This document shows positions 22,214 to 44,587 of a DNA stretch of 64,000 bases, in pieces. The DNA is from Rhodospirillales bacterium (GTDB lineage: Bacteria > Pseudomonadota > Alphaproteobacteria > CACIAM-22H2). The stretch lies in the NCBI GenBank assembly GCA_947445225.1, contig CANFCX010000002.1:26119-90118 (forward strand), given 5' to 3'. Numbering within the stretch: the first letter of the stretch is position 1; every line of letters starts with the position of its first letter. Both the position numbers and the translations under genes were made by a program. The notes below the pieces were generated by a model. The model worked only from the letters and a program-made list of their open reading frames with translations, searched no databases and had not been told where the DNA came from.

Positions 22214-23791
22214 ATGGAAGGCACCGCCGGGAAGGCGCCCCGTTCTCGCCCGCCCACGTTGATCGCGCGGCTGTCGCGGCTGTGGCGTGACTGGGCCACC
22301 GGCGCGGTTCCACGGCCGCATCGCATTGCCTCCAGCCCTTGGGCCGGCGACCCGAACCGTGACGCCCGAATTTTCCTCGAAGAAAAAGCCCGAGCCGAAG
22401 CCGACAATTCGGCTGGCGCCCGCTTCCATTCCTTTGAGTGGCTGAACGATTTGCGCGCGTCCGGGGACGCGGATGCGCGCGGCCTGGCTCTCGGCGAGAT
22501 TTCGTCCTGGATCGACCTCCATGGCGATCCTAGTACGGTTTCCTGGCGCGCCGACATTCTGGGCGCGCGCTTGACGTCATGGCTGCGCGCTTACGATTTT
22601 CTCAACCCCGACGCCGATCTCGACCTTCGTCTCCGCCGCAGTTTCGCCCGGCAACTCCTCCGTCTCGCGCGCAGCGCCGGCACCGGGCCCGACGGAGTCC
22701 CCCGCCTCCTCGCGATCAAGGGATTGGTCTTTGCCGGGGCCTGCCTGCCCGGGCGGGACGCCCTCCTCACCCGTGGTCTGACCCTGCTCGAGCGTGAGCT
22801 TGGACGCCAAATCTTGGTTGACGGCGGACATGTCGAACGTTCGCCGGCCGCCCAACTCGAAGCGCTGCGTGTTCTTGTCGAGCTGCGCGTCCTCTTGAGC
22901 GAATGCGGCATCGGCGCGCCCGAGGCCCTTCATCACGCCATCGACCGCGTTGCTCCGATGCTCCGCTTCTTTCGTCATGGCGATGGCGGCCTTGCCCTGT
23001 TCAACGACAGCGGCGAGGCGGACGGCACGGAGATCGACGCTGTTCTTGCGGCCAGCGAAGCCAAGGGCAAACCACCCGCCGCGGCGTCGCATCTGGGCTT
23101 CCAGCGCCTGAGCGCGGAGCGCACGCTGGTTATCTTCGATGCCGGCGCGCCGCCGCCACCGGGGCTTGATCGGAGAGCCCATGCCGGCACGCTCAGCTTC
23201 GAGATGAGTGCCGGCCGCGAACGCCTGATCGTCAATTGCGGGGCACGCGCGGATTCGTCCGCGTGGCGGACCGCCCAACGCGCCACCGCCGCCCACAGCA
23301 CCGTCGTGGTTGCCGACACCAATTCGTCGGAATTGCTCGCCGATGGCGGTCTCGGCCATCGGCCGGTGACCGTGGAATGCCAACGCGCCGAGGCCGATGA
23401 AAATATCTGGATCGAGGCCAGCCACGACGGGTACCGCACGTTTGGCGTCATCCACCATCGCCGGCTTTATCTTTCCGCAGCCGGCGACGATTTGCGCGGC
23501 GAGGACCGTCTGACGGGTACCGCGGGGCGGCCTTTTGCCCTCCGCTTCCACATCCATCCCGAGGTGCAGGTGTCGCTCGCGCAAAATGGCGCCATGGTGC
23601 TGTTGCGGCCGCCGCGCGGGCCGGGCTGGCGCCTTCAGGTCGCGGGCGGGCGGATCGGGCTCGCGGAAAGCGTCTATTTGGGCAAGGCCGGCAAACCCCG
23701 GCGTTGCGAACAGATCGTCGTCGACGGAACGATCGGAACCGACGGCGCGGCGGTGAAATGGGCCATCAAACGCCTTCCGACGAAGGCTTGA
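22214..23791 (+). CDS. heparinase II/III-like family protein
   Basis: Alpha/alpha-toroid plus beta-sandwich family signatures (HAGTLSFEMSAG, ILVDGGHVERSP); conserved neighbour of rpe in alphaproteobacteria from memory. Confidence 0.55.
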   Translation: MEGTAGKAPRSRPPTLIARLSRLWRDWATGAVPRPHRIASSPWAGDPNRDARIFLEEKARAEADNSAGARFHSFEWLNDLRASGDADARGLALGEISSWIDLHGDPSTVSWRADILGARLTSWLRAYDFLNPDADLDLRLRRSFARQLLRLARSAGTGPDGVPRLLAIKGLVFAGACLPGRDALLTRGLTLLERELGRQILVDGGHVERSPAAQLEALRVLVELRVLLSECGIGAPEALHHAIDRVAPMLRFFRHGDGGLALFNDSGEADGTEIDAVLAASEAKGKPPAAASHLGFQRLSAERTLVIFDAGAPPPPGLDRRAHAGTLSFEMSAGRERLIVNCGARADSSAWRTAQRATAAHSTVVVADTNSSELLADGGLGHRPVTVECQRAEADENIWIEASHDGYRTFGVIHHRRLYLSAAGDDLRGEDRLTGTAGRPFALRFHIHPEVQVSLAQNGAMVLLRPPRGPGWRLQVAGGRIGLAESVYLGKAGKPRRCEQIVVDGTIGTDGAAVKWAIKRLPTKA

Positions 23792-23890: not shown

Positions 23891-24520
23891 TTGGCGAAAT
23901 CACAGGCATCGACGGGCGCGGGCGACACCGAAATCACACTCGGTCTGCTCAATGCGGTCGAAAAAAACAGCGATCTCACGCAGCGATCGGCGTCCCGCGA
24001 TCTCGGTATCGCGCTGGGTCTGACGAACGCCTATCTGCGCCGCTGCGTCAGCAAGGGGCTGATCAAGGTCAGGCAAATTCCCCGGAAGCGTTATGCGTAT
24101 TATCTGACGCCCAAGGGATTCGCCGAAAAAAGCCGGCTGACCGCGGAATACCTGTCCTCGTCGTTCAATTTTTTTCGCAAGGCCCGCAGCCAGCTCTCGG
24201 AATTGTTCGTGTTGTGCGAACAACGAAACTGGCGCCGCATCGCCCTTTGGGGATCCAGCGAGTTGGCCGAAATCGCCACCTTATGCGCGCGCGAACATGG
24301 CGTCGTTCTGGTCGGCATCCAGGATTCGAGAAGTAAAGCCGACACTTTCGCCGGGCTGAAGGTGTCAAGGCTGCCAGGCCAGCTTGGCGCGGTCGATGCC
24401 GTCATCCTCACCGAAACGCGGGCGCCGCAGGCCGCCTTCGACGAAGCCGCGGCAACCTTCGATCCAGAACGGATCCTGACGCCCAATCTGCTGCGGCTCG
24501 CGCATGGACGGAACCGCTGA
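23891..24520 (+). CDS. putative winged-helix transcriptional regulator, first gene of glycan locus
   Basis: N-terminal wHTH-like segment (LTQRSASRDLGIALGLTNAYLRRCVSKGLIKV...YAYYLTPKG) plus C-terminal alpha/beta domain; family unassigned. Confidence 0.4.
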   Translation: MAKSQASTGAGDTEITLGLLNAVEKNSDLTQRSASRDLGIALGLTNAYLRRCVSKGLIKVRQIPRKRYAYYLTPKGFAEKSRLTAEYLSSSFNFFRKARSQLSELFVLCEQRNWRRIALWGSSELAEIATLCAREHGVVLVGIQDSRSKADTFAGLKVSRLPGQLGAVDAVILTETRAPQAAFDEAAATFDPERILTPNLLRLAHGRNR

Positions 24521-24521
24521 C

Positions 24522-25025
24522 ATGCGGCGATGGTACGTCGCCCACACCCAGCCGCGCGCCGAATCCCAGGCCGAAATGCATTTGCGCCGCCAGGAATTCG
24601 ACGTCTACCTGCCGCGCCACAAAAAACAGCGCCGGCATGCGGGCCGCGCGGAAATCGTCGCGGCACCGTTGTTTCCGGGCTATCTGTTCGTGGGCATCGA
24701 CATGGAGCGCCAGCGTTGGCGTTCCATCGATTCCACGGTCGGCGTTCACCGGCTGGTATCGGGCGGAGACGGACCGATTCCCGTGCCGCCGGAGGTGATC
24801 GAGGCGATCCGCGAGCGCGAGGATGATTGCGGCTTCGTGGTCCTCGGGCGGGGGACAACTTTCGCGAAGGGCGATCGGATACGCGTGGTCGCCGGAGCAT
24901 TGAGCGATCAAGTCGGGTTGTTTGACGACGGGTCCGATTCCCAGCGTGTTGTTGTCCTGCTTCAACTTCTCGGCCGCCCCGTGCGCGTGAGGCTTCCGCT
25001 CGACGCGGTGGCCGCCTGCGCCTAG
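24522..25025 (+). CDS. NusG-family paralog (RfaH/UpxY-like operon-specific antiterminator candidate)
   Basis: NGN domain signature WYVAHTQPRAE...LFPGYLFV and KOW-like C-terminus; ~168 aa; sits directly upstream of the glycan operon leader. Confidence 0.7.
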   Translation: MRRWYVAHTQPRAESQAEMHLRRQEFDVYLPRHKKQRRHAGRAEIVAAPLFPGYLFVGIDMERQRWRSIDSTVGVHRLVSGGDGPIPVPPEVIEAIREREDDCGFVVLGRGTTFAKGDRIRVVAGALSDQVGLFDDGSDSQRVVVLLQLLGRPVRVRLPLDAVAACA

Positions 25026-25864: not shown

Positions 25865-27412
25865 GTGCTGGCCGTGAGCCCCGATACAGGTTTTCCGCCG
25901 GCCCTCGACGAAGCGACCGCGGCGCGGCGCTTCGCCAGCGTCGGGATAGAGGTGCGGGCGGTTTGGCGCGATCTCGCGCTCAAATTGGCGGAACGGCTAA
26001 AGCAGCGGTACGGGTCCAAGATCCATCTTTACGTTCGCAGCCCGGAGGAACTCCGAGCCTTTCAAAAGATGAACGCCGATGGCCGTTGGGACTCCGTATC
26101 CAACAACAATGTCATCCCCGAAGCCATGCGCGCGACCGGCCTGAACGACGCCGACGTCATTGCCCGCGCCCAAGAATTTGAAAAACAGACCGACACGACG
26201 ATTAACCTGATCGCCTGCGTCCACCGCCATTTCGGCCGCGGCTTCAGTCCGGGCAGCTTCCATTACCCGCGATCGCGGCACTATCAGGCGGTCAGCTACA
26301 TTCAGATGCTGCACGCACATAGCGAGCTGCTTGAATTCTGGCGCCGCGAGATCGAGGGCAAGGGCCTGACCCTGCTGCTCCAAGGCGACAAGGATGCGGC
26401 GATCATGGCCCGCGCCCATGGCATTCTCTATCGCCGTCTCGATACCACGCGCTACAAGAACTATTGGTACTGGACACCGAGCGAGTACTACTTCAACCCC
26501 GCCGTCGAGCCGGCCTATCACGCGATGACGTCGTGGCCGGAATCGGATCTCGGCGAGTCCTACACGCTTGCCACCGCAAAGAAGACTTGGTTCGCCAGCG
26601 ATTCGCTCGCCCTTACCTTGCGCCGCACCGCCATGGCGGCCCTTCGATATGGCTATTGGAAGTTACGGCGCTACCAAAAGGCCGATAGCTACGATTTCAG
26701 AGCCTTCGTGGCCTTCCCCATGCGTGAACATCTCGCCTTTCGGCGCATGACGGGAGCGCGCACCGTGCGGCTTGGTGATCTGGCCGGCCGACGGTTCGCC
26801 TATTTCCCGTTGCACAAGGAACCGGAAACGAGCCTCCAGCTGATGTCGCCGGAGCATTTCAATCAGCACGCCGCGATCCTTTCGATCGCCCGCGACTTGC
26901 CGGCCGGCGTGTTGCTCGCGATCAAGGAGAACATGTGGTCGCTCGGCCGCCGGCCCACCGACTTCTACGAACAAGTCGCCGACCTCAAGAATGTCGTGTT
27001 TCTCGATCTCCGCGAAAATGGCATCGATTGCGCGCGGCAGGCCGATTTCACCGTCACGATCACGGGCACGGCGGGATTCGAAGCCGCCGTGATGGGCAAG
27101 CCCGTTGTCACCTTTGGCCGCCACAACATGTACAGCGTGCTGCCTCACGTTATGACGGTCACCGACGAAAGGCAGATCAAGGGTTTCGTCGATCGGGCGA
27201 TCCACGGCGTCGATCCCGAAAAGGCGCGCAGCGATGGGGCCCGCTTCCTGGCGGCCGCGCTTGCTTGCTCTTTCGACATGAAAAACTTTGCCCTGAATAC
27301 GCGGACGCAGACCGCCCGCCTTCAGGATGACGCGGTCGAAAACGCTTATGCCGGGCTGATTACGAGCCTCGCCCTTCCCGAGACCAACCAGGTGGCGGCC
27401 TTGGCCGGATGA
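25865..27412 (+). CDS. capsule polysaccharide biosynthesis protein, KpsC/KpsS-like (Capsule_synth fold) candidate
   Basis: C-terminal motif TITGTAGFEAAVMGKPVVTFG resembles the NSTVGFEAL...GKPVV motif of KpsC/KpsS beta-Kdo transferases; from memory. Confidence 0.45.
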   Translation: MLAVSPDTGFPPALDEATAARRFASVGIEVRAVWRDLALKLAERLKQRYGSKIHLYVRSPEELRAFQKMNADGRWDSVSNNNVIPEAMRATGLNDADVIARAQEFEKQTDTTINLIACVHRHFGRGFSPGSFHYPRSRHYQAVSYIQMLHAHSELLEFWRREIEGKGLTLLLQGDKDAAIMARAHGILYRRLDTTRYKNYWYWTPSEYYFNPAVEPAYHAMTSWPESDLGESYTLATAKKTWFASDSLALTLRRTAMAALRYGYWKLRRYQKADSYDFRAFVAFPMREHLAFRRMTGARTVRLGDLAGRRFAYFPLHKEPETSLQLMSPEHFNQHAAILSIARDLPAGVLLAIKENMWSLGRRPTDFYEQVADLKNVVFLDLRENGIDCARQADFTVTITGTAGFEAAVMGKPVVTFGRHNMYSVLPHVMTVTDERQIKGFVDRAIHGVDPEKARSDGARFLAAALACSFDMKNFALNTRTQTARLQDDAVENAYAGLITSLALPETNQVAALAG

Positions 27413-28635
27413 CCCTGGAACTCGAATCCCCGCCGCCGGATGTCCGCCGGGCACCATCGCTCCACGACCGCATGCTCGCGAATTTCCGGTTGGCCCGCGA
27501 AAGTTATGTCCGGCACCATCGCAGCCGACATTGGGACCTTTTTCCGCCGGATTACGAGGCGCGGCTTGGCGACGAGAGTCTGTGGCCGGATTTCCGCCGC
27601 AATGGGCTGACCCGCGGGTTCGGCACCTCAAGGGGCGCGCCGGACACGCCCGACGATACGCTCGATTCGCGGGCGGCCGGCAAGTTGGTCGCGGCGTTCG
27701 ACGGGTTGGTCGGGATCACCGGCTTTGAGTTTGTCCGCGATTATCACGAGGCGCGCATCGGCCGCCCGGTGGCTCTGGAACACCGCGGTCTGCTGCTCGA
27801 TCGCAACGATTTGCGTCTGGTCCATGACACCTGGGAGATCGTGCGCCATCTCGGGCTGCCGGCGGATGCGGCGCCGACCTTCGTCGAAATCGGCGGCGGC
27901 CATGGCGGCCTCGTCGCCAAACTCAAACGGCGTTGGCCGCGTGCGCGGTGCATCATCCTCGACCTGCCGGAGGTCAACGCCGTTCAGACCCACTATCTTT
28001 CGACCGCCTTTCCTGGCGCTCGGTTGCTTCTTTATTCCGAGTTCCTGGCCGGCGGCGCCAAGGCGCTTTCAGGCGAGTTCGATTTCGCCATCCTGCCGGG
28101 CTGGACCGCCGATCAATTGCGCGACGAGTCGGCCGATCTGGTGATGAACACCCGGTCGATGCAGGAGATGAACCGCGAGACCATCGGGTTCTATTTCGAC
28201 CGGATTCATCGGTTCCTGCGGCCGGGCGGCCTGTTCTATTGCGTCAATCGCTATACCAAATCGACGGTCGGCGAGCCCATCCGCATTAAGGACTTCCCGT
28301 TCGATGACCGCTGGCACATTCAGGTATCGCGGCCGTCTTTCGACCAGCCTTGGATACATGAGTTGATCGCCGTTCGCTCGACAATGCCGGTCGTGCCGGC
28401 GCCAGCGAGCACACTTGCCGCGTTGCCCCCCTATCGTTTGGCCGATGTCGGGACCGGCTTGGCGACGGCGATCCGGCGGCTGTTCGCGATTATTTTCGGC
28501 GACCATCCCAACATCAATCCGGGCATTCCAGGCACCCTGCGCAACGCTCGCGTGGCGCTGGAGCGGGGTTTGGTGGCTTGGGTGCGCGGGCGCCCCGGTC
28601 TTCGGGCCGGCTTGAAGAAACTTCTGCGCCGCTGA
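27409..28635 (+). CDS. class I SAM-dependent methyltransferase (sugar O-methyltransferase-like)
   Basis: Motif I FVEIGGGHGGL and acidic motif II; ATGA overlap with upstream gene. Confidence 0.55.
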   Translation: MTLELESPPPDVRRAPSLHDRMLANFRLARESYVRHHRSRHWDLFPPDYEARLGDESLWPDFRRNGLTRGFGTSRGAPDTPDDTLDSRAAGKLVAAFDGLVGITGFEFVRDYHEARIGRPVALEHRGLLLDRNDLRLVHDTWEIVRHLGLPADAAPTFVEIGGGHGGLVAKLKRRWPRARCIILDLPEVNAVQTHYLSTAFPGARLLLYSEFLAGGAKALSGEFDFAILPGWTADQLRDESADLVMNTRSMQEMNRETIGFYFDRIHRFLRPGGLFYCVNRYTKSTVGEPIRIKDFPFDDRWHIQVSRPSFDQPWIHELIAVRSTMPVVPAPASTLAALPPYRLADVGTGLATAIRRLFAIIFGDHPNINPGIPGTLRNARVALERGLVAWVRGRPGLRAGLKKLLRR

Positions 28636-28647
28636 CGACGACAAAAC

Positions 28648-29946
28648 GTGCGCCCTCGCCTTGTCCTATTTTTCCTGTCGCCGCGGTTGATCGATTGCGA
28701 CAGCTACTTGCCCGTGGCGATGGAGATGAAGGCGCAGCTTCCCGATCTCGACATCCGGTTCGTTACCTTCAGCCGGGAAAACTACGATGATGTCCGCAGC
28801 AACCCCACTTTGGCGGCGGGCCTCGCCCGCTGTGGCACACTCGCCTGGGTCGGCGGCGAGGGGCCGGGCGGTCGGTTACGACGGTCGCTGCGTCGAATCC
28901 GCAAATTCGCGGAACTCGCCGCAAGCCTTATCCGGCGACCCGGGGCCATGCTCTTTCACGGGCGGCAGTATGTCGAACGCCCCTACCGCGCGCTGTTTTG
29001 GCTGAACCGCATGCTTGGCGGGCGCGGTTTCGTCCTGGCCAGGATCCGCATGGTTGACGAGGGGCACCATCCCCATCGGCTGAGCGAGTTCGAGGTCATG
29101 GGGTCGCGCCGACTCTCGTGGCTTGATCGCCTTCGCGGGCGCGAGAGCGACGGACTTGTGCACTACCACGACCGCCAGGAGATGTATCTCCGCTCTCTCG
29201 CGAAATTTGGACGCACAGACTGGCCGCGGCGCGCCAAAGTCGGGTTGCCCAGCGCCTTGCCTTCATGGCGGGCGCTTATCGCCGAGGCGGTGGAGACCGA
29301 ACGCCAAGCGCTCGCCGCCGCGGGCCGCAACGTGGACGAGATCTACAGTTTCTTTTCTGCCAAGGGTTACAGCTCCACCCATCTGCGCACGCCGGAGTCG
29401 GCGCAACGCACCTTCGACAACGTCGTGCGTAGTTTGACGACCCTGCGGCCGCGCGCGACGATTCTGCTTCGGCCCCATCCCCTGGCCCTGCGCGAACCTT
29501 GGTTCAAGGCGGCGTTGGAGGCGATCGGGAACCCCAATGTGGTTCTCAGCTACGCCCATCCCGAAGTCATGGTCGCCCTGTCGCGCCGTGCCTTGGTCAA
29601 CAATCCCACCAACATCCTGTTCACCACGCCCTTCGGCCGATTCATCGATTGCAGCGACTATCGCCCGTCACATTATGAGCAAGTCGGCGAGGCTTCGCTG
29701 GCGGAGGGATATGGCGTCGTGTTCGTCAACCCCGCCCGCGACGATTTCGCCCAGCGCCTCGAATGGGCGCTCGGCGAGGAGCCGTGGCAAGACGTGGCCG
29801 TCTTCGCCAAGCGGGAGCGACTGAGCCGCGACAATCCGCCCTCGATCGCCGAAATGCTGAACTGGTTCGAGGCGTCCATGCCAAACGCCGATCCCATCCC
29901 CTCGGGCATAAGCAACGCCGCTAGCAGTCCGGGGCAACGACCGTGA
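28648..29946 (+). CDS. hypothetical protein, possible GT-B-like/Capsule_synth-like transferase
   Basis: No firm motif; length and position in glycan operon. Confidence 0.3.
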   Translation: MRPRLVLFFLSPRLIDCDSYLPVAMEMKAQLPDLDIRFVTFSRENYDDVRSNPTLAAGLARCGTLAWVGGEGPGGRLRRSLRRIRKFAELAASLIRRPGAMLFHGRQYVERPYRALFWLNRMLGGRGFVLARIRMVDEGHHPHRLSEFEVMGSRRLSWLDRLRGRESDGLVHYHDRQEMYLRSLAKFGRTDWPRRAKVGLPSALPSWRALIAEAVETERQALAAAGRNVDEIYSFFSAKGYSSTHLRTPESAQRTFDNVVRSLTTLRPRATILLRPHPLALREPWFKAALEAIGNPNVVLSYAHPEVMVALSRRALVNNPTNILFTTPFGRFIDCSDYRPSHYEQVGEASLAEGYGVVFVNPARDDFAQRLEWALGEEPWQDVAVFAKRERLSRDNPPSIAEMLNWFEASMPNADPIPSGISNAASSPGQRP

Positions 29947-30665
29947 GCACCGGCGTTCTTTGCGTGATCCCGGCGCGCGGCGGGTCAAAAGGCCTGCCCC
30001 GGAAAAACGTCCTGCCCCTGGCCGGGCGGCCGCTAGTCGGCTACCCCATCGCGGCGGCGAAGGCGAGCGGCGTGTGCGATGCCATCTTCGTCACGACCGA
30101 CGACGAAGAAATCGCGGCGGTTGCCCGGGCCGAGGGCGCCGATGTGCCGTTCCTGCGGCCCGCCGATTTGGCCGGGGACCTGACGACGACGGAAGCCACG
30201 TTGCGCCACGCCTTGCTCGCCTATGAGTCCCATACCGGACGGCAATTCGACATTTGCGTCTTCCTGACGCCGACCGACATCTTTCGCAGCCCGGCCTGGA
30301 TTGCTCGCGCCGTGAACCTGCTGAAGGAACAGCCGAAACTCGAAAGCGCCTTCGCCGGTACCGCCACGCACAAGAATTACTGGGACCGCGAACCCGGCGG
30401 CGCCTGGGTTCGCGTCCTGCCCTGGATGCGCGACTACAGCTCGCGGCAGGTGCGCCGGAAAATCTATCGCGAGGACACCGGGCTCGCCTGCGCCAGCCGC
30501 GCCGATATCTGGCGCGGCGGACGGCGAATCGGCGACGTCGTTGAAATCATTCCCAACGACCTCCCCGAGACGGCGATCGACATCCATACCGCCTTCGACC
30601 TGTTCCTGGCGACCAAGGCGATCGAATATCTGCGCGCGCACCACCCCGAGCGCCTCCCCGTCTGA
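29943..30665 (+). CDS. acylneuraminate cytidylyltransferase family protein (CMP-ulosonic acid synthetase)
   Basis: N-terminal VIPARGGSKGLPRKN motif of NeuA/PseF/LegF family. Confidence 0.8.
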   Translation: MSTGVLCVIPARGGSKGLPRKNVLPLAGRPLVGYPIAAAKASGVCDAIFVTTDDEEIAAVARAEGADVPFLRPADLAGDLTTTEATLRHALLAYESHTGRQFDICVFLTPTDIFRSPAWIARAVNLLKEQPKLESAFAGTATHKNYWDREPGGAWVRVLPWMRDYSSRQVRRKIYREDTGLACASRADIWRGGRRIGDVVEIIPNDLPETAIDIHTAFDLFLATKAIEYLRAHHPERLPV

Positions 30666-32062
30666 TGGCAAAAACACCAACCGCGACTTCAGGCAACGAT
30701 GGACCTTTGGTCTCCATCATCGTACGCACAAAGAACGAGGAGCGCTGGATCGGTAGCTGCCTGCGCGCCATCCAACGCCAGACCTATCGCAATTACGAAA
30801 TTATCCTGGTCGATAACCTGTCGACCGACCAGACGGTGGCGAAGGCCGCGCCTTTCGGTGTCAAGCTGGTGCGAATCGACAAATTCCTGCCCGGCAAGTC
30901 CCTGAACGACGGCATCCGCGCCAGTCGTGGAGAGATTCTGGTCTGCCTTTCCGGGCACTGCATCCCGGTCAACGAGGTCTGGCTTGGCAATCTCGTCCGC
31001 AATCTCGGCGATTCAGACGTCGCGGGCGTTTATGGCCGTCAGGAGCCGTTGAGCTTTTCGTCCGATCTCGATAAACGCGACCTGCTCATTACATTTGGCC
31101 TCGACCGCAAAGTACAGGTCAGGGACAGCTTTTTTCACAACGCCAACAGCGCGATGCGGCGGGCGGTCTGGGATCGCTTTCCCTTCGACGAAACCGTGAC
31201 CAATATCGAGGATCGGGTGTGGGCGCGACAGGTCCTATCCGCGGGCATGAAGATCGTCTACGAGCCCGAAGCCAGCGTCTACCACTGGCACGGCATCCAT
31301 CAGGAGATGAATTCTGAGCGGGCGCGCAATGTCGTGCGCATCATGGAACAGATCGATGGTACCGAAAGGATCGGCGCCGGCCCCGATTCCGCCGACCTTC
31401 ACGTCGTGGCGATCGTGCCGAGCAAGGGCGAACCGCGCCGATTCAACAACGCGCCGCTCGCCCTGCCCACGCTACGCCACGCGCTGGCCGCCAAATACGT
31501 CAACCATGTATTTGTCGCCACCGACAATGACGAGATGGCGGCGGTGGCGCGATCCGCCGGCGCCGGCGTCATCATGCGGCCGCCGAGCCTGTCCGAAGAC
31601 TACGTTGATATCGTCGATGTGTTGCAATTCGCCTTGGAACGAATCGAGGCGCAGGGGACTGTCCCGGATTTGGTCGTCGCACTCGAGGAGACCCACCCCT
31701 TTCGCCCAATCGCCCTCGTGGATTCAATGATCGCCAAATTGGTGAAGGAAGGGATGGACAGCCTGGTGGCGGCCAAACGGGAGCCCCGCCGCGTGTGGCT
31801 GAGCGACGATGGCTCGATCCGAGATGCGGGAGAGGGCGGATTCATGCCGCGTCAGTTCAAACGCACCGTGGCGTTTATCGGGCTGTTCGGTCTCGCCTTC
31901 GTCACTCACCCCAGCCTGATCCGCAGCGGCAGCATGTTCGGCGGCAAGGCCGGCATCTACGAAATCGACGATCCCTTCTGCGGCATCGAAATCCGCAGCG
32001 AGGAGCATCTGAAAAAAGCCGGCCCGCTGTTCGAGGCGTGGTCCCGAGAGACCCGGCCGTGA
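30665..32062 (+). CDS. bifunctional fusion: N-terminal GT2 glycosyltransferase + C-terminal acylneuraminate-cytidylyltransferase-like domain
   Basis: N-term VSIIVRTKNEERWIGSCLRAIQRQTY...EIILVDN (GT2), C-term AIVPSKGEPRRFNNAPLA...ATDNDEMAAVARSAG (CTase). Confidence 0.65.
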   Translation: MAKTPTATSGNDGPLVSIIVRTKNEERWIGSCLRAIQRQTYRNYEIILVDNLSTDQTVAKAAPFGVKLVRIDKFLPGKSLNDGIRASRGEILVCLSGHCIPVNEVWLGNLVRNLGDSDVAGVYGRQEPLSFSSDLDKRDLLITFGLDRKVQVRDSFFHNANSAMRRAVWDRFPFDETVTNIEDRVWARQVLSAGMKIVYEPEASVYHWHGIHQEMNSERARNVVRIMEQIDGTERIGAGPDSADLHVVAIVPSKGEPRRFNNAPLALPTLRHALAAKYVNHVFVATDNDEMAAVARSAGAGVIMRPPSLSEDYVDIVDVLQFALERIEAQGTVPDLVVALEETHPFRPIALVDSMIAKLVKEGMDSLVAAKREPRRVWLSDDGSIRDAGEGGFMPRQFKRTVAFIGLFGLAFVTHPSLIRSGSMFGGKAGIYEIDDPFCGIEIRSEEHLKKAGPLFEAWSRETRP

Positions 32063-33150
32063 GTCGCCGGAGTTATCGCGCCGCGTTCATCGGCTGCGGC
32101 CGCGTGGCCGAGCACTATGTGCGCATTCTCACCAAGATCGATCCGGTCGATCGGCTTGCGATCGCCGCTTGCAGCGATCCGATCGAAGCTAAAGCGCGGT
32201 CGATCGGCGCCGCGCTTGGCGCCAAACCCTACGGCAATACCGCCCAAATGCTCGCCGAAACCCGGCCCGATCTGGCCATCGTGATGACGCCCAGCGGATA
32301 CCACTATGACCATGCCAAGCAGGCGCTGGAGGCCGGATGCCACGTTCTCGCGGAGAAACCGGTGACGATCATCCCCGGCCAGGCAGGTGAGCTTGCGACT
32401 CTCGCCCGCGCTCGCGGTTTGCTCTACGGCGGCGTATTCCAGAACCGGTACAATCCGGCGCTCCGAAAGCTGCGCGAAGCCGTCGATAAGGGACGCTTCG
32501 GCACCATCGTAACGGCCGCCATTCGCCTGCGCTGGTGCCGCACCCAGGATTATTACGAGGATGGGTGGCACGGCACCTGGGCCATGGATGGCGGTGTCAT
32601 CAACCAGCAGGCCATACATCATGTCGATGCGCTGAATTGGCTTTGCGGCCCGATCGAGGCTGTCTCCGCGTCGGCCGGCAACCGCCTGAACCGGCTGGAG
32701 GCGGAGGACACGATGGTGGCCGCCATCCGCTTTTCCAGCGGCGCGCTCGGCACCATCGAGGCGACGACCGCGGCGCGACCGGTGGATTTCGAAGCCTCGC
32801 TGAGCATCGTCGGTGAGAAGGGAATGGTCCAGGTCGGCGGCATCGCCCTCAACCATATCGATGTCTGGCGTTTCGTGGTGCCCGAAGCGGAAGACGCGGA
32901 GATTCCCGCCCGCTGGTCGCAAGAGGTGGAATTCGGCTACGGAGTCGGCCACGGTCCGCTGCTTCGGGATTGGGTGGCGGCGCTGGATGCTGGCGCCGTC
33001 GAGCCACCGATCCCGGCGATGCAGGCGGTCCAGGCCGTCGAGCTGGTGCACGCGCTCTACGCCAGCGTCGAGACCGGCAACTGGGTCCGACCGCGCGACA
33101 AGGCGCAATCCGCGCGACTGGGCATCGCGCCGAAATCAAGGGCATCATGA
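32059..33150 (+). CDS. Gfo/Idh/MocA family NAD(P)-dependent oxidoreductase
   Basis: AFIGCGRVAEHY Rossmann start, EKP motif (VLAEKPV); GTG 32059 overlaps upstream stop (GTGA). Confidence 0.8.
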   Translation: MSRRSYRAAFIGCGRVAEHYVRILTKIDPVDRLAIAACSDPIEAKARSIGAALGAKPYGNTAQMLAETRPDLAIVMTPSGYHYDHAKQALEAGCHVLAEKPVTIIPGQAGELATLARARGLLYGGVFQNRYNPALRKLREAVDKGRFGTIVTAAIRLRWCRTQDYYEDGWHGTWAMDGGVINQQAIHHVDALNWLCGPIEAVSASAGNRLNRLEAEDTMVAAIRFSSGALGTIEATTAARPVDFEASLSIVGEKGMVQVGGIALNHIDVWRFVVPEAEDAEIPARWSQEVEFGYGVGHGPLLRDWVAALDAGAVEPPIPAMQAVQAVELVHALYASVETGNWVRPRDKAQSARLGIAPKSRAS

Positions 33151-34043
33151 CCACGATTGAAAACAAGTTTCCCGGCAAGGATGTCTCCGACGATGACCTG
33201 CGCACGAAACTCAGGCTGACGGCGAAGGCCAATCCCGGACACAGGAGCCGATTCACCGTGGCCGGGGTTGAATTCGGCGGCGATCTCGTCCCCGTCTTCG
33301 CCGGCCCGAACATGGTCGAGTCCGAGAGCCTGATCGTCGATATCGCCAAAGCCGTCAAACGGGCGGGCGCTCATTTCCTGCGCGGCGGCGCCTTCAAGCC
33401 GCTGACGTTCCCCTATCGCAGCGCGAAATACGCCGAGACACGCGAAGAGGGAATTGCCTGGCTCGCTCGCGCCAAGGCGGTGGCGGGAATCCCGGTCATC
33501 ACCGAGATCATGGAAGAGAAGTACATACCGCTCGTCGCCGGAGTCGCCGACATCCTCCAGATCGGCGCCCGCAACATGCAGAACTATCCCTTGATCGTCG
33601 CCTGCGCGCGGACCGGCAAGCCGATCATGTTGAAACGCCATTTCGGCTGCTCGTTGCGCGATTGGCTGGGCGCGGCGGAATACATCCTGGCCGAGGGCAA
33701 TGAAAAGGTGATCCTGTGCGAGCGCGGCATCTCCGCACCGCACACGCACCGCGCCACCTCGCGCTTCCTCCTCGATCTTCAAGTCGTGCCGGCCGCGCAG
33801 GAAGTGACACATCTGCCGATCGTCGTTGATCCCAGCCACGCCACCTTTTGGCGGGCTTGGGTGGCGCCGATGGCTCTCGCCTCGGTCGCCGCCGGAGCCG
33901 ACGGCGTGATGATCGAAGTTCACCCCGATCCGCCCAACGCCGCGGTCGATCCCCTGCAACCCGTCGACTACGCCGAGTTCAAGGACATCATGGGCCGCAT
34001 GGACGCGGTCGCCCGCGCCGTCGGACGAAAAGTGCTGGCGTGA
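33147..34043 (+). CDS. DAHP synthetase I family protein (type I-beta DAHPS/KDOPS-like PEP aldolase) paralog
   Basis: [10 protein letters not shown] and [13 protein letters not shown] motifs match AroA(G)/T. maritima-type DAHPS; 298 aa; ATGA overlap with upstream gene. Confidence 0.75.
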
Positions 34044-34933
34044 CGGCGATCTCCGGACTGATCGAGAACAACGTAGCGTGGCAGCCGGGCAAGCCCTTCG
34101 CGGCGATCTTGGGCGCCAGCCCCTCAAAGGGGGCGCGGTCGCCTCGCCTTTGGAATGCAGCCTTCGCCGCGTGCGGCCGGGATTCAAGGATGGTGCCGTT
34201 CGACGTGACCGCGGCCAAACTGGCGGCTCTGCTGGAGGCCCTCGACCGCGATACCGATTTCCTCGGCGCGGCGATTGCCGTGCCGCATAAGGAGGCCGTG
34301 GCCCGGTGGCTCGGGGAGCGCGTCACTCCGGAAGCCGCGCGGATCGGAGCCGTGAACTGCCTCTTTCGGCGCGACGGACGCCTTTGGGGCACCAATACCG
34401 ATGGCGAGGCCGCCCGCGTCAGCCTGGAGCGAAGAGTTGGCGGGCTGTTGTCGGAGAAGCGTGTCCTCCTGCTCGGCCCCGGAGGCGCTGGCAAGGCAGT
34501 CGCGGCCTTCATCGTCGGCGGCTGCCGCGCGCTGTTTTTGGTCGGACGCGATGCCGAACGGACGCGCGCCTTCGCGGACAGGATCGGAGCGTCGTCCATT
34601 TCCGTCTCGGCACTCGATGCGCAATTGCCGGCGGTGGATGTGCTGGTCAACTGCACCAGCGTCGGCAGCGCCGCGGCCGGCACGGCGGAGCTTTCGCCGC
34701 TCTCCCCGGCCCAGATTGCGCGGCTTCCCGACCACGCCCTGGTCTTTGACATCATCTACGATCCCAGCCCGACTCGGCTTCTTGCCCTCGCGGCGGCGCG
34801 CGGCCTGGCCACGCTTGACGGGACCGAAATGAACCTCGAACAGGCGGCGCTCGCATTCGGCCATGCCGTTCCCGGCACTGGCACCGCCTCTGACATACAT
34901 GCGGCGATGGCGGCGGCGGCACGCCGCGCGTGA
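34040..34933 (+). CDS. shikimate/quinate 5-dehydrogenase (AroE) family protein
   Basis: SPxxxNAAF-like (SPRLWNAAF), GTNTDG and Rossmann LLLGPGGAGKAV motifs; GTG 34040 overlaps upstream stop (GTGA). Confidence 0.75.
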   Translation: MTAISGLIENNVAWQPGKPFAAILGASPSKGARSPRLWNAAFAACGRDSRMVPFDVTAAKLAALLEALDRDTDFLGAAIAVPHKEAVARWLGERVTPEAARIGAVNCLFRRDGRLWGTNTDGEAARVSLERRVGGLLSEKRVLLLGPGGAGKAVAAFIVGGCRALFLVGRDAERTRAFADRIGASSISVSALDAQLPAVDVLVNCTSVGSAAAGTAELSPLSPAQIARLPDHALVFDIIYDPSPTRLLALAAARGLATLDGTEMNLEQAALAFGHAVPGTGTASDIHAAMAAAARRA

Positions 34934-39402: not shown

Positions 39403-40349
39403 TCGCCGACCCGCCCGGCCGCTACTTCGTACTGCTCTATCACGGCGTTCATGCCGATGATCTCGAACTCGGCCACCGCAATAGTTCGGGAAAACATGTG
39501 CCGCGCTCGCGTTTTGCCGCCGAGATGCGGCATTTGGCCGCGAACCGCCCGGTCGTGCGCTTGAGCGACATCGCCGCCGCCCATCGCGGCGAGCGCGACC
39601 TGCCGGCGGGTGCGGTCGCCGTCACCTTCGACGACGGCTTCTACAACAATCTCGCCGAGGCGCTGCCTGTTCTTGAGAAATTCGGCGTCCCCGCGACCTT
39701 CTATCTCGCGACCGGATTCATCGGCACCGGCCGCGCGATTTGGACCGACCGGTTAGAGGCAGCGATTGTGCAGACCAAACGCGACCGGCTGACTCTTGTT
39801 TTAAGCGGCGTGGAGACGCGTTTTCCCCTGACCGACAGACAATCCCGCCTAACCGCCCTATCCGCGGTCAAACGTGCCTGCAAAGGCCTGCCCAACGCCG
39901 ACAAGGACATCGTGGTGGCCGAGGTCGAAGCGCAGCTACAGGCTCAAGCCGACCCCAATCACCCGCTTTATCGCTTCCTCGATTGGGACGACGTGCGGAC
40001 GATGAACCGATCCCCCGTTGTCGATTTCGGCGCGCACACCGTGGACCATGTTTCGCTGGCGAAAGTGCCCAGGGCGGAGATGCGGCGGCAAATCGACGAC
40101 TCGGTGGCGGCTCTGGAAAGCGCATTGCAGCATCGCTGCACGTTGTTTTCCTACCCCGAGGGGCAGGCCGACGATTACGACGACCATGTCATCGGCCATC
40201 TGCGCGAACGCGGCTTCGATCACGCGCCGAGCGCCATGGCGGGGTCCAACGATCTTGGAATCACCAACCCCTTCCATATCCGCCGCGACATGGTCGGGTT
40301 CGAGAACCGGCCCTATCCATTCATGCCCCAACCGAAGAACGCGGCATGA
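39399..40349 (+). CDS. polysaccharide deacetylase (NodB homology domain)
   Basis: VTFDDGF and His-ligand motifs; ATGA overlap both ends. Confidence 0.75.
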   Translation: MIADPPGRYFVLLYHGVHADDLELGHRNSSGKHVPRSRFAAEMRHLAANRPVVRLSDIAAAHRGERDLPAGAVAVTFDDGFYNNLAEALPVLEKFGVPATFYLATGFIGTGRAIWTDRLEAAIVQTKRDRLTLVLSGVETRFPLTDRQSRLTALSAVKRACKGLPNADKDIVVAEVEAQLQAQADPNHPLYRFLDWDDVRTMNRSPVVDFGAHTVDHVSLAKVPRAEMRRQIDDSVAALESALQHRCTLFSYPEGQADDYDDHVIGHLRERGFDHAPSAMAGSNDLGITNPFHIRRDMVGFENRPYPFMPQPKNAA

Positions 40350-41362
40350 TCCTGTTCGGTCGCGATCTTGATAAGGATGTGGCCGTGGTCGCCGAAATCG
40401 GCGTCAACCACGAAGGCAACGTCGATGTGGCCTCCCGCATCCTTGCCGCCGCCGCGAAGGCCGGGGCCGATGCGGTCAAGCTGCAAAGTTACACGCCCGA
40501 GCGTTACACCTCCGCTTCGGACGCCGAACGTTTTGCCCGAGTCTCGCGCGTCGCCCTCGACATCGCCGCCCACGACCGCCTGGCAGCGGAGGCCAAGGCA
40601 ATCGGCATTCCCTTGTTTTCGACACCGCTTTCCGAAGATTGGGTCCAGCCGATCGCGGAATTCGCTCCGGCCATCAAGATCGCGAGCGGCGATCTGACGT
40701 TCGAGACCGTGATCCGCGCCGCCGCCCGCACCGGCAAGCCGGTCCTCCTCTCGACCGGCTGCGGTGTCGTCGATGAAATCGACCGGGCCGTGGGTTGGGT
40801 GCGCGACGAGGTTGGTCCGAAGGCATTGAACGAAAGGTTGGTTCTGCTGCATTGCGTGTCCGGCTATCCCACGCCCATTGAGCAGGCCAATGTGCGCGCC
40901 GTGCCTTTCCTGAAGGCACGGTACGGCCTGCCGGTCGGCTACTCCAACCATGTCATCGGGTCCGAGGCCGTGCTGGCCGCCGCGGCTTTGGGGGCGGCGG
41001 TTATCGAGGTCCACGTTACCGATGCCAATCTGCGGGAGACGAGCAGCTTCCGCGATCACCGTCTGTCGTTCACCGGGCCGGAACTGGCGGCGCTCATCCA
41101 ATCCATCCGGGGCGTGAAATCCGCGCTGGGCGATGCGGCGAAGACCGTGCAGGCGGCGGAGGCCGGGAATCGAGACGCAATCCGCAAGGGGATCGTCGCC
41201 AAACACGACCTTGCCGCGGGTGTCGTGTTGACCGATGACGATCTGCTCTATGCGCGCCCGGCAACACAGTTCCTCGCCGCCGAACGTCCGACACTTATCG
41301 GCCGGCGTTTGCTGCGCGCCTTGCGCCGGGGTGAGATCGTTCCGCGGGACGCGGTGAAATAA
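40346..41362 (+). CDS. N-acetylneuraminate synthase family protein (NeuB/LegI/PseI-type) with SAF domain
   Basis: VVAEIGVNHEGN...KAGADAVKLQ N-terminus and C-terminal SAF-like domain. Confidence 0.85.
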   Translation: MILFGRDLDKDVAVVAEIGVNHEGNVDVASRILAAAAKAGADAVKLQSYTPERYTSASDAERFARVSRVALDIAAHDRLAAEAKAIGIPLFSTPLSEDWVQPIAEFAPAIKIASGDLTFETVIRAAARTGKPVLLSTGCGVVDEIDRAVGWVRDEVGPKALNERLVLLHCVSGYPTPIEQANVRAVPFLKARYGLPVGYSNHVIGSEAVLAAAALGAAVIEVHVTDANLRETSSFRDHRLSFTGPELAALIQSIRGVKSALGDAAKTVQAAEAGNRDAIRKGIVAKHDLAAGVVLTDDDLLYARPATQFLAAERPTLIGRRLLRALRRGEIVPRDAVK

Positions 41363-43809: not shown

Positions 43810-43817
43810 GGAGGGTC

Positions 43818-44564: not shown

Positions 44565-44587
44565 TGTCGTTCACCATCGAGTAGGCA

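Follow-up and report, generated by a model that had tools for sequence, protein, structure and literature searches.

We propose that the 64,000-nucleotide stretch of DNA analysed here (the window) encodes a fusion in which a GT2 glycosyltransferase carries a pseudo-cytidylyltransferase that docks on its active paralogue, or holds the CMP-sugar made by it, as part of an ulosonic-acid cassette, a reading to which we give an even chance of being right. The intact stand-alone cytidylyltransferase (CTase) encoded upstream would activate the sugar, while the fused pseudo-CTase would stand in for one of the two protomers of the CTase, normally a homodimer, or would at least bind its CMP-sugar product, and would thereby tether the GT2 to the source of its labile donor. 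The pair of CTase and GT2-pseudo-CTase, which occurs in hundreds of bacterial lineages, probably marks an uncharacterised acidic surface sugar pathway.

The gene pair and its distribution

The genes and domains at the centre of the analysis are as follows.

28648..29946, forward strand: GT-B-fold protein by predicted structure, 432 aa
29943..30665, forward strand: stand-alone CTase, 240 aa, GTG start, Pfam CTP_transf_3, NeuA/PseF-like
30665..32062, forward strand: fusion of GT2 and CTP_transf_3 domains, 465 aa, ATG start
30704..31309, forward strand: GT2 (GT-A fold) domain, residues ~14-215 of the fusion, Pfam PF00535
31394..32059, forward strand: CTase-like C-terminal domain (C-domain), residues ~244-465 of the fusion, CTP_transf_3

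A preliminary description of this DNA had placed a stand-alone CTase ahead of a GT2-CTase-like fusion, and Pfam matches in both open reading frames bear this out. The first matches CTP_transf_3 over residues 7-179 (E=1.7e-19), and the domain boundaries in the second are given by Glycos_transf_2 (PF00535) at residues 17-168 (E=1e-23) and CTP_transf_3 at residues 259-367 (E=6e-9; 36.5 bits against a cut-off of 22.6), the latter match covering profile positions 20-122 only. The motifs quoted earlier, IVPSKG... and ATDNDE, are present in the fusion, and its AlphaFold model has two well-folded domains with a low-confidence linker at residues 225-239. The junction of the two genes, described as ATGA, is in fact TGATG, in which the stop codon TGA (30663-30665) and the start codon ATG (30665-30667) have one base in common; an ATGA overlap occurs at 33147.

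The fusion is real and is not the frameshift artefact that had been considered, since four contigs, which come from three metagenome samples (ENA), carry the identical 465-aa reading frame, relatives are encoded in 215 of 185,579 reference species genomes, and 480 representatives of 50%-identity clusters match it at E<=1e-30. At the three places shown for the identical protein the gene order is the same as far as the contigs extend. Nor is the architecture unusual, as had been supposed: it is common, and the family is large, widespread and uncharacterised, with at least 120 clusters (90% identity) of 448-497 aa among the best matches listed, most of them with both Pfam domains. Of the 50 loci whose flanks are long enough, 46 have the CTase as well as the fusion, usually with the CTase 680-740 nt ahead of the start of the fusion on the same strand, and about 35 times immediately upstream on that strand; in the other four (L005, L056, L059 and L063) no CTase was found within 10 kb of the fusion.

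The stand-alone CTase and its fused paralogue

Both CTase-like proteins were compared with CMP-sialic acid, CMP-pseudaminic acid and CMP-Kdn synthetases (N. meningitidis 1EYR, V. cholerae 6IFD, A. caviae 9FTB/9FTC, PpNeuA 9T4Z and mouse 1QWJ), and both share the fold of these enzymes as well as the cytosine-contacting arginine and the trans-acting arginine of the dimerisation arm. The profile of the stand-alone family scores 92-128 bits on them (128 on the CMP-Pse synthetase 9ftb, 126 on VcCMAS 6ifd). The C-domain reaches TM 0.75-0.84 to 6ifd, 9ftc, 9t4z, 1eyr and 1qwj, with 0.78-0.84 (target-normalised) over 218-232 aligned columns of the whole CMP-sialic-acid synthetase 6ifd, a match well above chance level, and has the full CMP-ulosonate-synthetase fold, dimerisation arm included.

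Assignment of the stand-alone gene to the NeuA/PseF family holds in the broad sense; its 119 bits against the PseF cut-off of 205.7 (NCBIfam) mark it as divergent and NeuA/PseF-like, not as a PseF orthologue. All 16 family sequences have R12, G13, G14, S15, K16, G17, K21, N22, R72, R168 and Q169, and 14 of the 16 keep D213. Because its CTP loop is intact, this protein is probably an active CMP-sugar synthetase, although it departs from the characterised enzymes at two canonical positions, with Thr or Ala at Q104 and His (H215) at D211, so that its activity, too, is something that we infer. Its sugar pocket is also altered (Y179 to Ala, F192 to Arg).

The second CTase domain described earlier stands as a fold but has largely lost its catalytic residues. 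Relative to NeuA 9ftb, its P-loop has a deletion of ~8 residues; throughout the family, in 189 of 189 database members, this CTP-binding loop lacks its K21/N22 portion owing to a deletion of 6-8 residues, and the short loop recurs in all 80 genome loci. When 30 family sequences were mapped column by column onto NmCSS, G17-N22 was deleted in 30/30, Q104 was replaced by Glu in 28/30 (E341 in the window), D209 by Glu in 27/30 (E442) and D211 by Arg in 26/30 (R444). The catalytic definition of the characterised synthetases thus fails here, in which K21A abolishes activity (PMC6580227), D211A lowers kcat 15,000-fold and Q104E, Q104L or Q104N lowers it 800- to 20,000-fold, Q104E being severely impaired in NmCSS (PMC2901514, PMC6580227). 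The C-domain is therefore a probable pseudo-cytidylyltransferase, and the fusion probably does not activate a sugar itself. It is a paralogue of the upstream CTase: the HMM of the stand-alone family scores 103 bits on it (positions 27-235) and 54 bits on the CTase at 57425, which makes the upstream CTase family its closest relative within the window.

The arginines that the C-domain has kept are consistent with binding. R305 (equivalent to R71, the cytosine contact) and R396 (equivalent to R165, trans-acting) are retained in 30/30, T343, P345, F346 and R347 are also conserved, and a basic residue and Gly occupy the R12/G13 positions, often with Ser-Arg at S15/K16. Active sites of this CTase class span the dimer interface, and in characterised enzymes the trans-acting arginine corresponding to R396 enters the active site of the partner protomer and binds the sugar carboxylate (PMC6580227). 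We infer a heterodimer of the stand-alone CTase and the C-domain, which could equally homodimerise.

It is rather improbable that the fusion is bifunctional, with an active C-terminal CTase handing its CMP-sugar to the GT2 in the same chain and the upstream CTase serving a different sugar. Both Pfam domains exceed their cut-offs, the CTase fold is complete, the residues just listed are conserved, and E341, E342 and E442, acidic residues that are new and invariant, could form a Mg2+ site like that of KdsB, whose ligands are described (PMC2901514), and so allow residual or altered catalysis. Against this stand the loss of the K21/N22 segment in every member examined and the Arg and Glu at D211 and Q104; moreover, the leftover loop residues are variable, whereas the loop of the paralogue is invariant, the C-domain evolves faster than any other part of the cassette, and a self-sufficient fusion would have no need of the intact CTase that is nearly always there. 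The earlier proposal that the fusion channels a freshly activated sugar to transfer survives in part: given an architecture that is real, conserved and functionally linked, coupling of activation to transfer is reasonable, but activation by the fusion itself is improbable with the catalytic residues lost, and any channelling is more likely between the upstream CTase and the fusion than inside one polypeptide.

Joining of a CTP_transf_3 domain to another pathway-related domain in one polypeptide is familiar from vertebrate CMAS, with its C-terminal phosphatase-like domain, and from NeuA of E. coli K1 or GBS, with its O-acetylesterase domain. In those fusions the CTase part is active, whereas here it is degenerate and its partner is a glycosyltransferase. 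Pairs of inactive and active paralogues are another parallel, for instance GMPPA with GMPPB and, in plant ADP-glucose pyrophosphorylase, the large with the small subunit. The T. brucei AdoMetDC prozyme is likewise a catalytically inactive paralogue that partners an active enzyme (PMC5201418). As in such pairs, a degenerate copy of an oligomeric enzyme stands beside an active one, with ligand and interface residues kept and catalytic ones lost; unlike in them, the degenerate copy is covalently fused to the downstream GT2, an arrangement that points to tethering or hand-off and not to allosteric control.

The GT2 domain and its donor

The GT2 domain resembles the inverting GT-A enzymes of CAZy GT2 with which it was compared (PcManGT 6YV7, K4CP 2Z86, PmHS2 8VH8, SpsA and WrtF 9OMH) in its PF00535 match, GT-A fold, nucleotide-binding Asp after strand 2 and general-base D183, and structure comparison gave PmHS2, K4CP, PcManGT, 6p61 and WrtF as fold matches. 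It differs from them in an invariant Ser-Gly/Ala-His-Cys at the position of the DxD motif (S96-G97-H98-C99 here) and in its CTase-like C-terminal domain, where CAZy GT2s usually have helical or membrane-associated extensions. The SGH aligns with the DAD of PcManGT 6yv7, and D183 with D223, the general base of that enzyme (PMC12595478); S96, H98, C99 and D183 are invariant in 30/30 fusion sequences. Some GT2 enzymes whose DxD is degenerate are known to work without metal, and WrtF and its relatives have degenerate DxD motifs; the SGH variant is not described in the paper that covers them (PMC12595478). With metal-free enzymes of this kind on record, and D183 and many other residues invariant, the GT2 domain is probably active. 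Absence of the DxD would fit CMP as the donor nucleotide, a monophosphate, for which no metal is needed to stabilise a diphosphate leaving group. The lineage is also tied to ulosonic acids, as SGH-type GT2 domains have been fused independently to NeuB/SAF domains (P0254, P0264 and P0208).

A different division of labour, which we regard as unlikely, would make the C-domain a mere oligomerisation scaffold or product sensor, the GT2 using an NDP-sugar and another enzyme transferring the CMP-ulosonate. Inactive nucleotidyltransferase paralogues can bind nucleotide-sugar products, and the cytosine- and carboxylate-binding arginines kept without catalytic residues fit binding without turnover. The invariant H98, H207 and H209 could make a DxH-like metal site, which would suit an ordinary diphosphate donor. 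Bacterial transferases that use CMP-Kdo or CMP-sialate usually have a GT-B fold, and the enzyme in question could be the GT-B protein at 28648, whose gene immediately precedes the CTase gene and is translationally coupled to it by a 4-nt overlap (GTGA, at 29943), or the KpsC/KpsS-like protein at 25865, which has a weak Capsule_synth match (Pfam). Neither can be a general partner, as both are missing from nearly all other CTase-fusion loci, and the NeuB/SAF fusions link the GT2 lineage itself to ulosonic-acid chemistry.

Equally improbable to us as in-chain activation is that the GT2, instead of being a glycan-specific transferase, serves as a pathway enzyme whose substrate is conserved and either small or universal, for instance by loading the ulosonic acid onto polyprenyl phosphate, glycosylating a small acid acceptor or hydrolysing a nucleotide-sugar precursor, as do the glycosyltransferase-fold enzymes PseG and NeuC in nonulosonic-acid pathways. 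Its median identity of 66%, against 59% for the active CTase, would be odd for a transferase with variable acceptors; it belongs to a conserved core with the CTase and the Gfo/Idh/MocA gene while flanking transferases vary; and in NCBIfam it comes nearest to small-molecule GT2s (MftF with 56 bits, arsenosugar-type TIGR04283 and GpgS). Those similarities are all weak, far below cut-offs, neither membrane segments nor lipid-carrier signatures were identified, and the inverting-type general base is compatible with ordinary transfer.

A conserved cassette and its surroundings

The favoured reading, a GT2 tethered to its CTase, also draws on a conserved gene order of CTase, fusion, Gfo/Idh/MocA, DAHP-synthase-like and shikimate-dehydrogenase-like genes, the last three being:

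32059..33150, forward strand: Gfo/Idh/MocA oxidoreductase, 363 aa (Pfam)
33147..34043, forward strand: class I-beta DAHP-synthase-type PEP-aldolase, 298 aa (TIGR01361)
34190..34933, forward strand: shikimate-dehydrogenase-like oxidoreductase, 247 aa (Pfam Shikimate_dh_N and Shikimate_DH)

The Gfo/Idh/MocA gene shares a true 4-nt overlap (GTGA, at 32059) with the fusion and another (ATGA, at 33147) with the PEP-aldolase gene. It is present in 60 of 80 loci, every time on the same strand, as the third of the core trio, and resembles the IolG-like and UDP-GlcNAc 3-dehydrogenase-like NCBIfam models, both under their cut-offs. The PEP-aldolase exceeds the TIGR01361 cut-off (280 bits against 267.75) and is the probable ulosonate-forming condensing enzyme. 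The shikimate-dehydrogenase-like gene (146.7 bits on the AroE model, under the cut-off of 200.2) closes the five-gene cassette; it occurs in 24 loci, its median offset being +3353.

This translationally coupled, conserved cassette suggests an undescribed ulosonic-acid pathway, in which PEP condensation would yield a 3-deoxy-2-ulosonic acid that would be tailored through oxidoreduction, CMP-activated and moved to a conserved acceptor, all within a large locus for surface glycans in an uncultured, Rhodospirillales-like alphaproteobacterium. It parallels the Kdo pathway (the KDO8P synthase KdsA, the phosphatase KdsC, the CMP-Kdo synthetase KdsB and Kdo transferases) in combining a PEP-dependent class I aldolase of the DAHPS/KDO8PS superfamily, a CTP_transf_3 activator and a transferase. 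In contrast to that pathway, its condensing enzyme scores as a class I-beta DAHP synthase, KDO8P-synthase models giving only ~95 bits; there are two additional oxidoreductases; its candidate transferase has a GT-A rather than a GT-B fold; and no KdsC-like or otherwise recognisable phosphatase that would free the ulosonic acid from a DAHP-type product is found in the cassette.

Over 23 window-type loci from several phyla, including Prochlorococcus, SAR11, Actinomycetota and Alphaproteobacteria, median identities are 73% for the DAHP synthase, 66% for the GT2 domain, 59% for the stand-alone CTase, 52% for Gfo/Idh/MocA, 45% for the shikimate-dehydrogenase-like protein and 40% for the C-domain. 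The GT2 domain is thus the better conserved half of the fusion, and constraint on the C-domain, the least conserved cassette element, appears relaxed. In remoter relatives the CTase signal of the C-terminal half becomes marginal, while the GT2 half still shows S[GA]HC and FFHNANS.

Elsewhere in the window, the GT-B protein at 28648 is locus-specific and lies outside the conserved core, with a homologue only in L003 among the 80 loci and only 20 in 5.8 billion proteins. It matches no Pfam or NCBIfam family, and its AF2 model (pLDDT 87, pTM 0.87) retrieved generic GT-B glycosyltransferases, UDP-GlcNAc 2-epimerases and the polysialyltransferase 5wcn with Foldseek (TM 0.45-0.59). Together with the 25865 protein it is another candidate transferase nearby. 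A six-frame scan of the 64 kb with two family HMMs gave three CTase domains (29943, the C-terminal half of the fusion and 57425) where four had been counted; the one at 57425, previously called PseF-type, has no PseF match at E<=1e-5, and its best NCBIfam matches are weak ones to KdsB-subfamily models.

Reading frames, junctions and prevalence of the fusion

The preliminary description placed a stand-alone cytidylyltransferase (CTase) directly ahead of a protein joining a GT2 glycosyltransferase domain to a second CTase domain. Both open reading frames are present, and Pfam confirms the domains in each:

29943..30665, + strand: stand-alone CTase, 240 aa; CTP_transf_3 (PF02348), E=1.7e-19, 70.9 bits against a gathering cut-off of 22.6
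30665..32062, + strand, residues 17-168: N-terminal half of the fusion; Glycos_transf_2 (PF00535), E=1e-23, 84.5 bits against 23.3
30665..32062, + strand, residues 259-367 of 465 aa: C-terminal half of the fusion; CTP_transf_3, E=6e-9, 36.5 bits against 22.6

Several details needed revision. Instead of the four CTase domains first counted, a six-frame scan with two HMMs yields only three in the window, namely the 29943 gene, the C-terminal half of the fusion and the gene at 57425. The last of these had been called PseF-type, but has no PseF match at E<=1e-5 and only weak matches to KdsB-subfamily models in NCBIfam. For the stand-alone CTase, PseF (TIGR03584) is the nearest NCBIfam model, at 119.1 bits, under the curated cut-off of 205.7 and over residues 6-140 only. 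The junction between CTase and fusion, given as ATGA, is actually TGATG with a one-base overlap; as the neighbouring junctions have 4-nt overlaps (GTGA at 29943, GTGA at 32059 and ATGA at 33147), five consecutive genes are translationally coupled.

A frameshift or assembly artefact merging two genes, raised at the outset as a possible explanation, is ruled out: the 465-aa protein is called identically on four metagenome contigs from three ENA samples, with the gene order around it kept to each contig's end in the three places shown, and it has hundreds of full-length homologues. Nor is the architecture unusual, as had been thought, since the same fusion was found across many genomes when searched for. 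In a word-indexed search the relatives, 448-497 aa long and at 51-71% identity, fell into at least 120 clusters (90% identity), most with both Pfam domains, and an exhaustive phmmer search over 1.84 billion representatives gave 480 matches at E<=1e-30, mostly full-length and down to ~32% identity. Among 185,579 reference species genomes, 215 encode a relative, the carriers including Alphaproteobacteria (SAR11, Roseibium, Rhizobium-like and Rhodospirillaceae members), Prochlorococcus, Planctomycetota, Omnitrophota, Desulfobacterota, Actinomycetota, Acidobacteriota and CPR lineages. Cultured organisms are among the carriers (Roseibium sp. MMSF_3544, Denitromonas iodatirespirans IR-12), which makes experiments feasible. 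The window itself stems from an uncultured alphaproteobacterium, with a LeuC that shares 97% identity with that of a 'Rhodospirillaceae bacterium' MAG.

The domain architecture is already displayed in databases, and some relatives have been labelled 'CMP-N-acetylneuraminic acid synthetase/GT2 family glycosyltransferase' by JGI; the fusion itself is therefore no discovery. What is new is that its CTase-like half is systematically degenerate, that an intact paralogue systematically accompanies it, and that the pair lies in a conserved, horizontally spread cassette around a DAHP-synthase-type aldolase. A full-text literature search turned up no paper describing either the fusion or the cassette, nor any on a glycan pathway combining DAHP synthase and CTase.

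A degenerate cytidylyltransferase-like domain and its intact partner

In Foldseek the C-terminal half of the fusion (hereafter the C-domain) matches CMP-sialic-acid, CMP-Pse and CMP-Kdn synthetases over their entire chains, at target-normalised TM scores of 0.75-0.84 to five solved structures. Its CTP_transf_3 match spans only positions 20-122 of the 217 in the profile, so that the N-terminal nucleotide loop is missed. Benchmark residues for this family come from experiments on the N. meningitidis, E. coli and V. cholerae enzymes (PMC2901514, PMC6580227). In the numbering of the N. meningitidis CMP-sialic acid synthetase, the P-loop residues of importance are R12, S15, K16, K21 and N22, and K21A is inactive; Q104E/L/N cut kcat 800- to 20,000-fold; R165 works in trans from the partner protomer, and R165A is inactive or nearly so; D209 and D211 are the Mg2+ ligands, and D211A cuts kcat 15,000-fold (PMC2901514, PMC6580227).

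We aligned four solved enzymes jointly with 16 stand-alone CTases and 30 fusion C-domains, and the two groups of domains separated clearly. All 30 C-domains keep a basic residue and Gly at R12/G13 and then carry a deletion of 6-8 residues that takes out G17-N22, the K21/N22 segment included. Q104 is replaced by E341 (28/30), and so are both Mg2+ ligands, D209 by E442 (27/30) and D211 by R444 (26/30). The same short loop occurs in all 80 genome loci and in 189/189 database members, none of which restores more than three residues, and it is equally degenerate in loci without a neighbouring CTase. No ancestral or exceptional member with an intact P-loop was found (0/189). Retained and invariant (30/30) are the cytosine-contacting R71 (R305) and the trans-acting R165 (R396). 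In remoter relatives the CTase-like half is marginal or undetectable, and the GT2 motifs S[GA]HC and FFHNANS are still present.

The C-domain is probably not a conventional cytidylyltransferase. Because its fold and the two Arg residues, cytidine-contacting and trans-acting, persist without the triphosphate-handling and catalytic residues, it would qualify as a pseudo-cytidylyltransferase. If the overall reading proposed below holds, the labels 'glycosyltransferase' and 'CMP-N-acetylneuraminic acid synthetase' on the several hundred sequence clusters of this family rest on mistaken grounds, and database entries would have to be corrected.

The stand-alone CTase has an intact CTP-binding P-loop, IPARGGSKGLPRKN, all of which is invariant in the family, the positions of R12, S15, K16, K21 and N22 included (16/16). 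The trans-acting pair R165/Q166 is kept as R168 and Q169 in all 16, and R71 as R72. At the remaining benchmark positions D209 corresponds to D213 (14/16), D211 is replaced by H215 (14/16) and Q104 by T or A, changes for which D112 may compensate. Scored with an HMM of the stand-alone family, the C-domain reaches 103 bits along almost the full length and the 57425 CTase only 54 bits, which makes the stand-alone CTase and the C-domain each other's closest paralogues in the window.

The pairing extends well beyond this genome. De novo clustering of every ORF of the 80 loci plus the window placed the stand-alone CTase family in 64/80 loci, always on the same strand and at a median offset of -718 nt, and the Gfo/Idh/MocA family in 60/80. 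Where there was enough flank, an intact CTase was detected by HMM within 10 kb of the fusion in 46 of 50 loci, directly upstream about 35 times. In three SAR11/marine alphaproteobacterial loci, L022 (ORF start ~10005), L040 (~8251) and L041 (~2145), the stand-alone CTase lies inside an ORF of ~580 aa and is thus fused to another domain.

These observations bear on the proposal, made in the preliminary description, that the fusion is truly bifunctional with an active cytidylyltransferase in its C-domain. New invariant acidic residues (E341, E342 and E442) could make a KdsB-like metal site; the P-loop deletion is universal, however, and an intact CTase is nearly always present alongside, so that we consider this explanation distinctly unlikely.

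The GT2 half and a possible hand-off of the CMP-sugar

An AlphaFold model of the fusion, built on a 30-sequence family alignment (pLDDT 81), has two folded domains joined by a low-confidence linker at residues 225-239. The N-terminal half matches the GT2 GT-A structures PmHS2, K4CP and PcManGT in Foldseek and is the better conserved half of the fusion in the family alignment. The metal-binding DxD motif, expected between strand 4 and strand 1', is absent, and Ser-Gly/Ala-His-Cys stands there instead: a PDB profile alignment sets S96-G97-H98 opposite D-A-D of PcManGT, S96 and H98 are invariant (30/30), and S[GA]HC is kept even in remote relatives. The general base is retained as D183 in an NIED motif, also invariant in the family alignment and equivalent to D223 of PcManGT, which together with D191 of SpsA marks the conserved base position of inverting GT-A enzymes (D223 in PMC12595478). 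Since GT2 enzymes with a degenerate DxD and metal-independent catalysis are on record (PMC12595478), loss of the motif does not mean that the enzyme is inactive. Placing the domain in a characterised subfamily failed, all NCBIfam matches being far under their cut-offs (best MftF, 56 bits vs 280). GT2 domains of the same SGH type are separately fused, C-terminal to NeuB/SAF (sialic-acid-synthase-type) domains, in proteins of 500-503 aa (P0254, P0264) and 337 aa (P0208) from the phmmer search; these constitute a Rosetta-stone-type link of this GT2 lineage to ulosonic-acid biosynthesis.

CMP-ulosonate synthetases are obligate dimers, and the dimerisation arm of one protomer completes the active site of the other (PMC6580227). 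We propose that the intact stand-alone CTase makes the CMP-sugar, and that the pseudo-CTase C-domain either stands in for a CTase protomer in the dimer or binds the finished CMP-sugar; under either role the GT2 would be kept at the source of a hydrolytically labile donor. A DxD-less GT2 would fit a donor with a monophosphate nucleotide. This overall reading, a GT2 and pseudo-CTase paired with an active stand-alone CTase for docking or for holding the CMP-sugar, seems to us about evenly balanced between right and wrong. If it is true, a pseudo-nucleotidyltransferase has been recruited as a docking or hand-off domain of a glycosyltransferase, one solution for CMP-ulosonic acids, which are prone to hydrolysis. 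Conservation of the GT2 half, high across phyla, would favour a conserved acceptor over a strain-specific glycan; that the GT2 instead serves within the pathway, with a small or universal molecule as its substrate, appears rather improbable.

The conserved cassette and the surrounding glycan locus

In ~25 loci the order CTase, fusion, Gfo/Idh/MocA gene, DAHP-synthase-like gene and shikimate-dehydrogenase-like (SDH-like) gene is kept with near-constant spacing, and it was found in Alphaproteobacteria, SAR11, Prochlorococcus, Actinomycetota, Acidobacteriota and one betaproteobacterium. Compared with the window, the 23 loci of its type show median identities of 73% (DAHP-synthase-like protein), 66% (GT2 half), 59% (stand-alone CTase), 52% (Gfo protein), 45% (SDH-like protein) and 40% (C-domain), which makes the CTase-like half the least constrained piece of the cassette.

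Gene 33147 passes the class I-beta DAHP synthase model TIGR01361 (280.0 bits vs a cut-off of 267.75) and reaches ~95 bits on KDO8P-synthase models with cut-offs of 242-314. It lies in a glycan cassette, and neither DHQ synthase nor dehydratase was found among its conserved neighbours. The product of gene 34190 does not reach the AroE model TIGR00507 (146.7 bits vs 200.2) and on these scores is classed as a member of the shikimate dehydrogenase superfamily, not an AroE equivalog; the Gfo gene at 32059 is under its equivalog cut-offs.

Mainly in Planctomycetota, Omnitrophota and Desulfobacterota the cassette takes a second form, mutually exclusive with the DAHP-synthase type (L007-L012, L015, L018, L023, L024, L028 and similar loci). 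Here a Ldh_2-family dehydrogenase (337 bits) and a Pfam-blank protein of ~640 aa, directly downstream of the fusion, replace the DAHP-synthase-like and SDH-like genes; the CTase has a KdsB-like loop, IPARMGSTRL, and B12-binding and SPASM radical-SAM enzymes are often present. Given two mutually exclusive variants, the invariant core is CTase, fusion and Gfo.

The cassette flags an uncharacterised acidic-sugar pathway for surface glycans of the abundant marine SAR11 and Prochlorococcus and of many uncultured phyla, and surface glycans of such bacteria matter for recognition by phages and grazers. Its DAHP-synthase-type condensing enzyme is a testable candidate route to C7 ulosonic acids, a gap stated in a 2012 review, in which the activated form of Dha, a member of the C7 ulosonic/ulosaric class, and C7 biosynthesis were reported as unidentified (PMC3355719). 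In its most far-reaching form, the proposal would be that the five genes constitute an undescribed route to a CMP-activated C7 3-deoxy-2-ulosonic or ulosaric acid via DAHP-type condensation, that an asymmetric CTase:pseudo-CTase heterodimer passes the labile CMP-sugar to a metal-independent, DxD-less GT2, the first CMP-sugar-using GT2, and that horizontal transfer has carried the cassette into SAR11, Prochlorococcus, Roseibium and many other phyla; taken as a whole, we regard this as a long shot. Dha as the specific product was set aside as low-probability speculation, DAHP having the arabino and Dha the lyxo configuration, with no C7-oxidising enzyme evident.

The cassette is embedded in a glycan locus of ~40 kb that contains a PseB equivalog, two NeuB genes, the third CTase, WbuX/HisH/AsnB amidotransferases, a carbamoyltransferase, methyltransferases and an ABC exporter. 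Other features of the window are:

22214-23791, + strand: heparinase II/III-like protein (PF07940, 232 bits)
23891-25025, + strand: winged-helix HTH protein and NusG paralogue, the first genes of the long glycan cluster on the plus strand
25865-27412, + strand: protein of 515 aa that matches Capsule_synth (KpsC/KpsS-type) only marginally (21.1 bits vs cut-off 20)
27409-28635, + strand: NanM-type sugar O-methyltransferase, next after the 25865 protein (100 bits vs cut-off 44)
28648-29946, + strand: putative orphan glycosyltransferase-like protein, 432 aa, of no Pfam or NCBIfam family, translationally coupled to the stand-alone CTase
56772-57424, + strand: GT2, 217 aa, resembling the polyprenyl-phosphate glycosyltransferases PpgS and AglJ (76 bits, under cut-offs)
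57425-58180, + strand: third CTase, directly downstream of the 217-aa GT2, a second, unfused GT2/CTase adjacency

Two of these proteins matter for a further explanation, in which the C-domain is a scaffold or sensor, the GT2 works on an ordinary NDP-sugar and another enzyme transfers the CMP-sugar. The 28648 protein, with only 20 homologues in 5.8 billion proteins, is modelled confidently as GT-B (pTM 0.87) with no close structural relative (best TM ~0.5-0.6), and on this model it looks like an orphan glycosyltransferase-like family; the 25865 protein could, from its weak Capsule_synth match, be a beta-Kdo-type ulosonic-acid transferase. Either would suit such a division of labour, yet both are missing from nearly all other loci, and we judge the explanation unlikely. 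Among the Pfam-blank neighbours (25865, 28648, 25166 and 35817 of the window; comp9 and comp19 of other loci) no sequence kinship was found, bar a weak comp9-comp19 profile match (81.8% probability).

Three plus-strand stretches (39740-41362, 41366-45697 and 49042-53830) hold the second NeuB/SAF gene, amidotransferases (AsnB-like, HisH-like and WbuX; acetamidino-type sugar modification), another AsnB-like gene and a carbamoyltransferase; at least two ulosonic/nonulosonic acid pathways and heavy sugar tailoring are thus combined in one locus. The pair of 217-aa GT2 and third CTase is preceded by the PseB equivalog (53715), an RmlD-like gene and a NeuB gene (55705). The HTH/NusG pair may be a dedicated antitermination system for the ~40-kb operon, and the heparinase-like gene at 22214 directly precedes the glycan cluster, flanked by housekeeping genes (rpe, asd, leuBCD, ffh) on one side and by this pair on the other.
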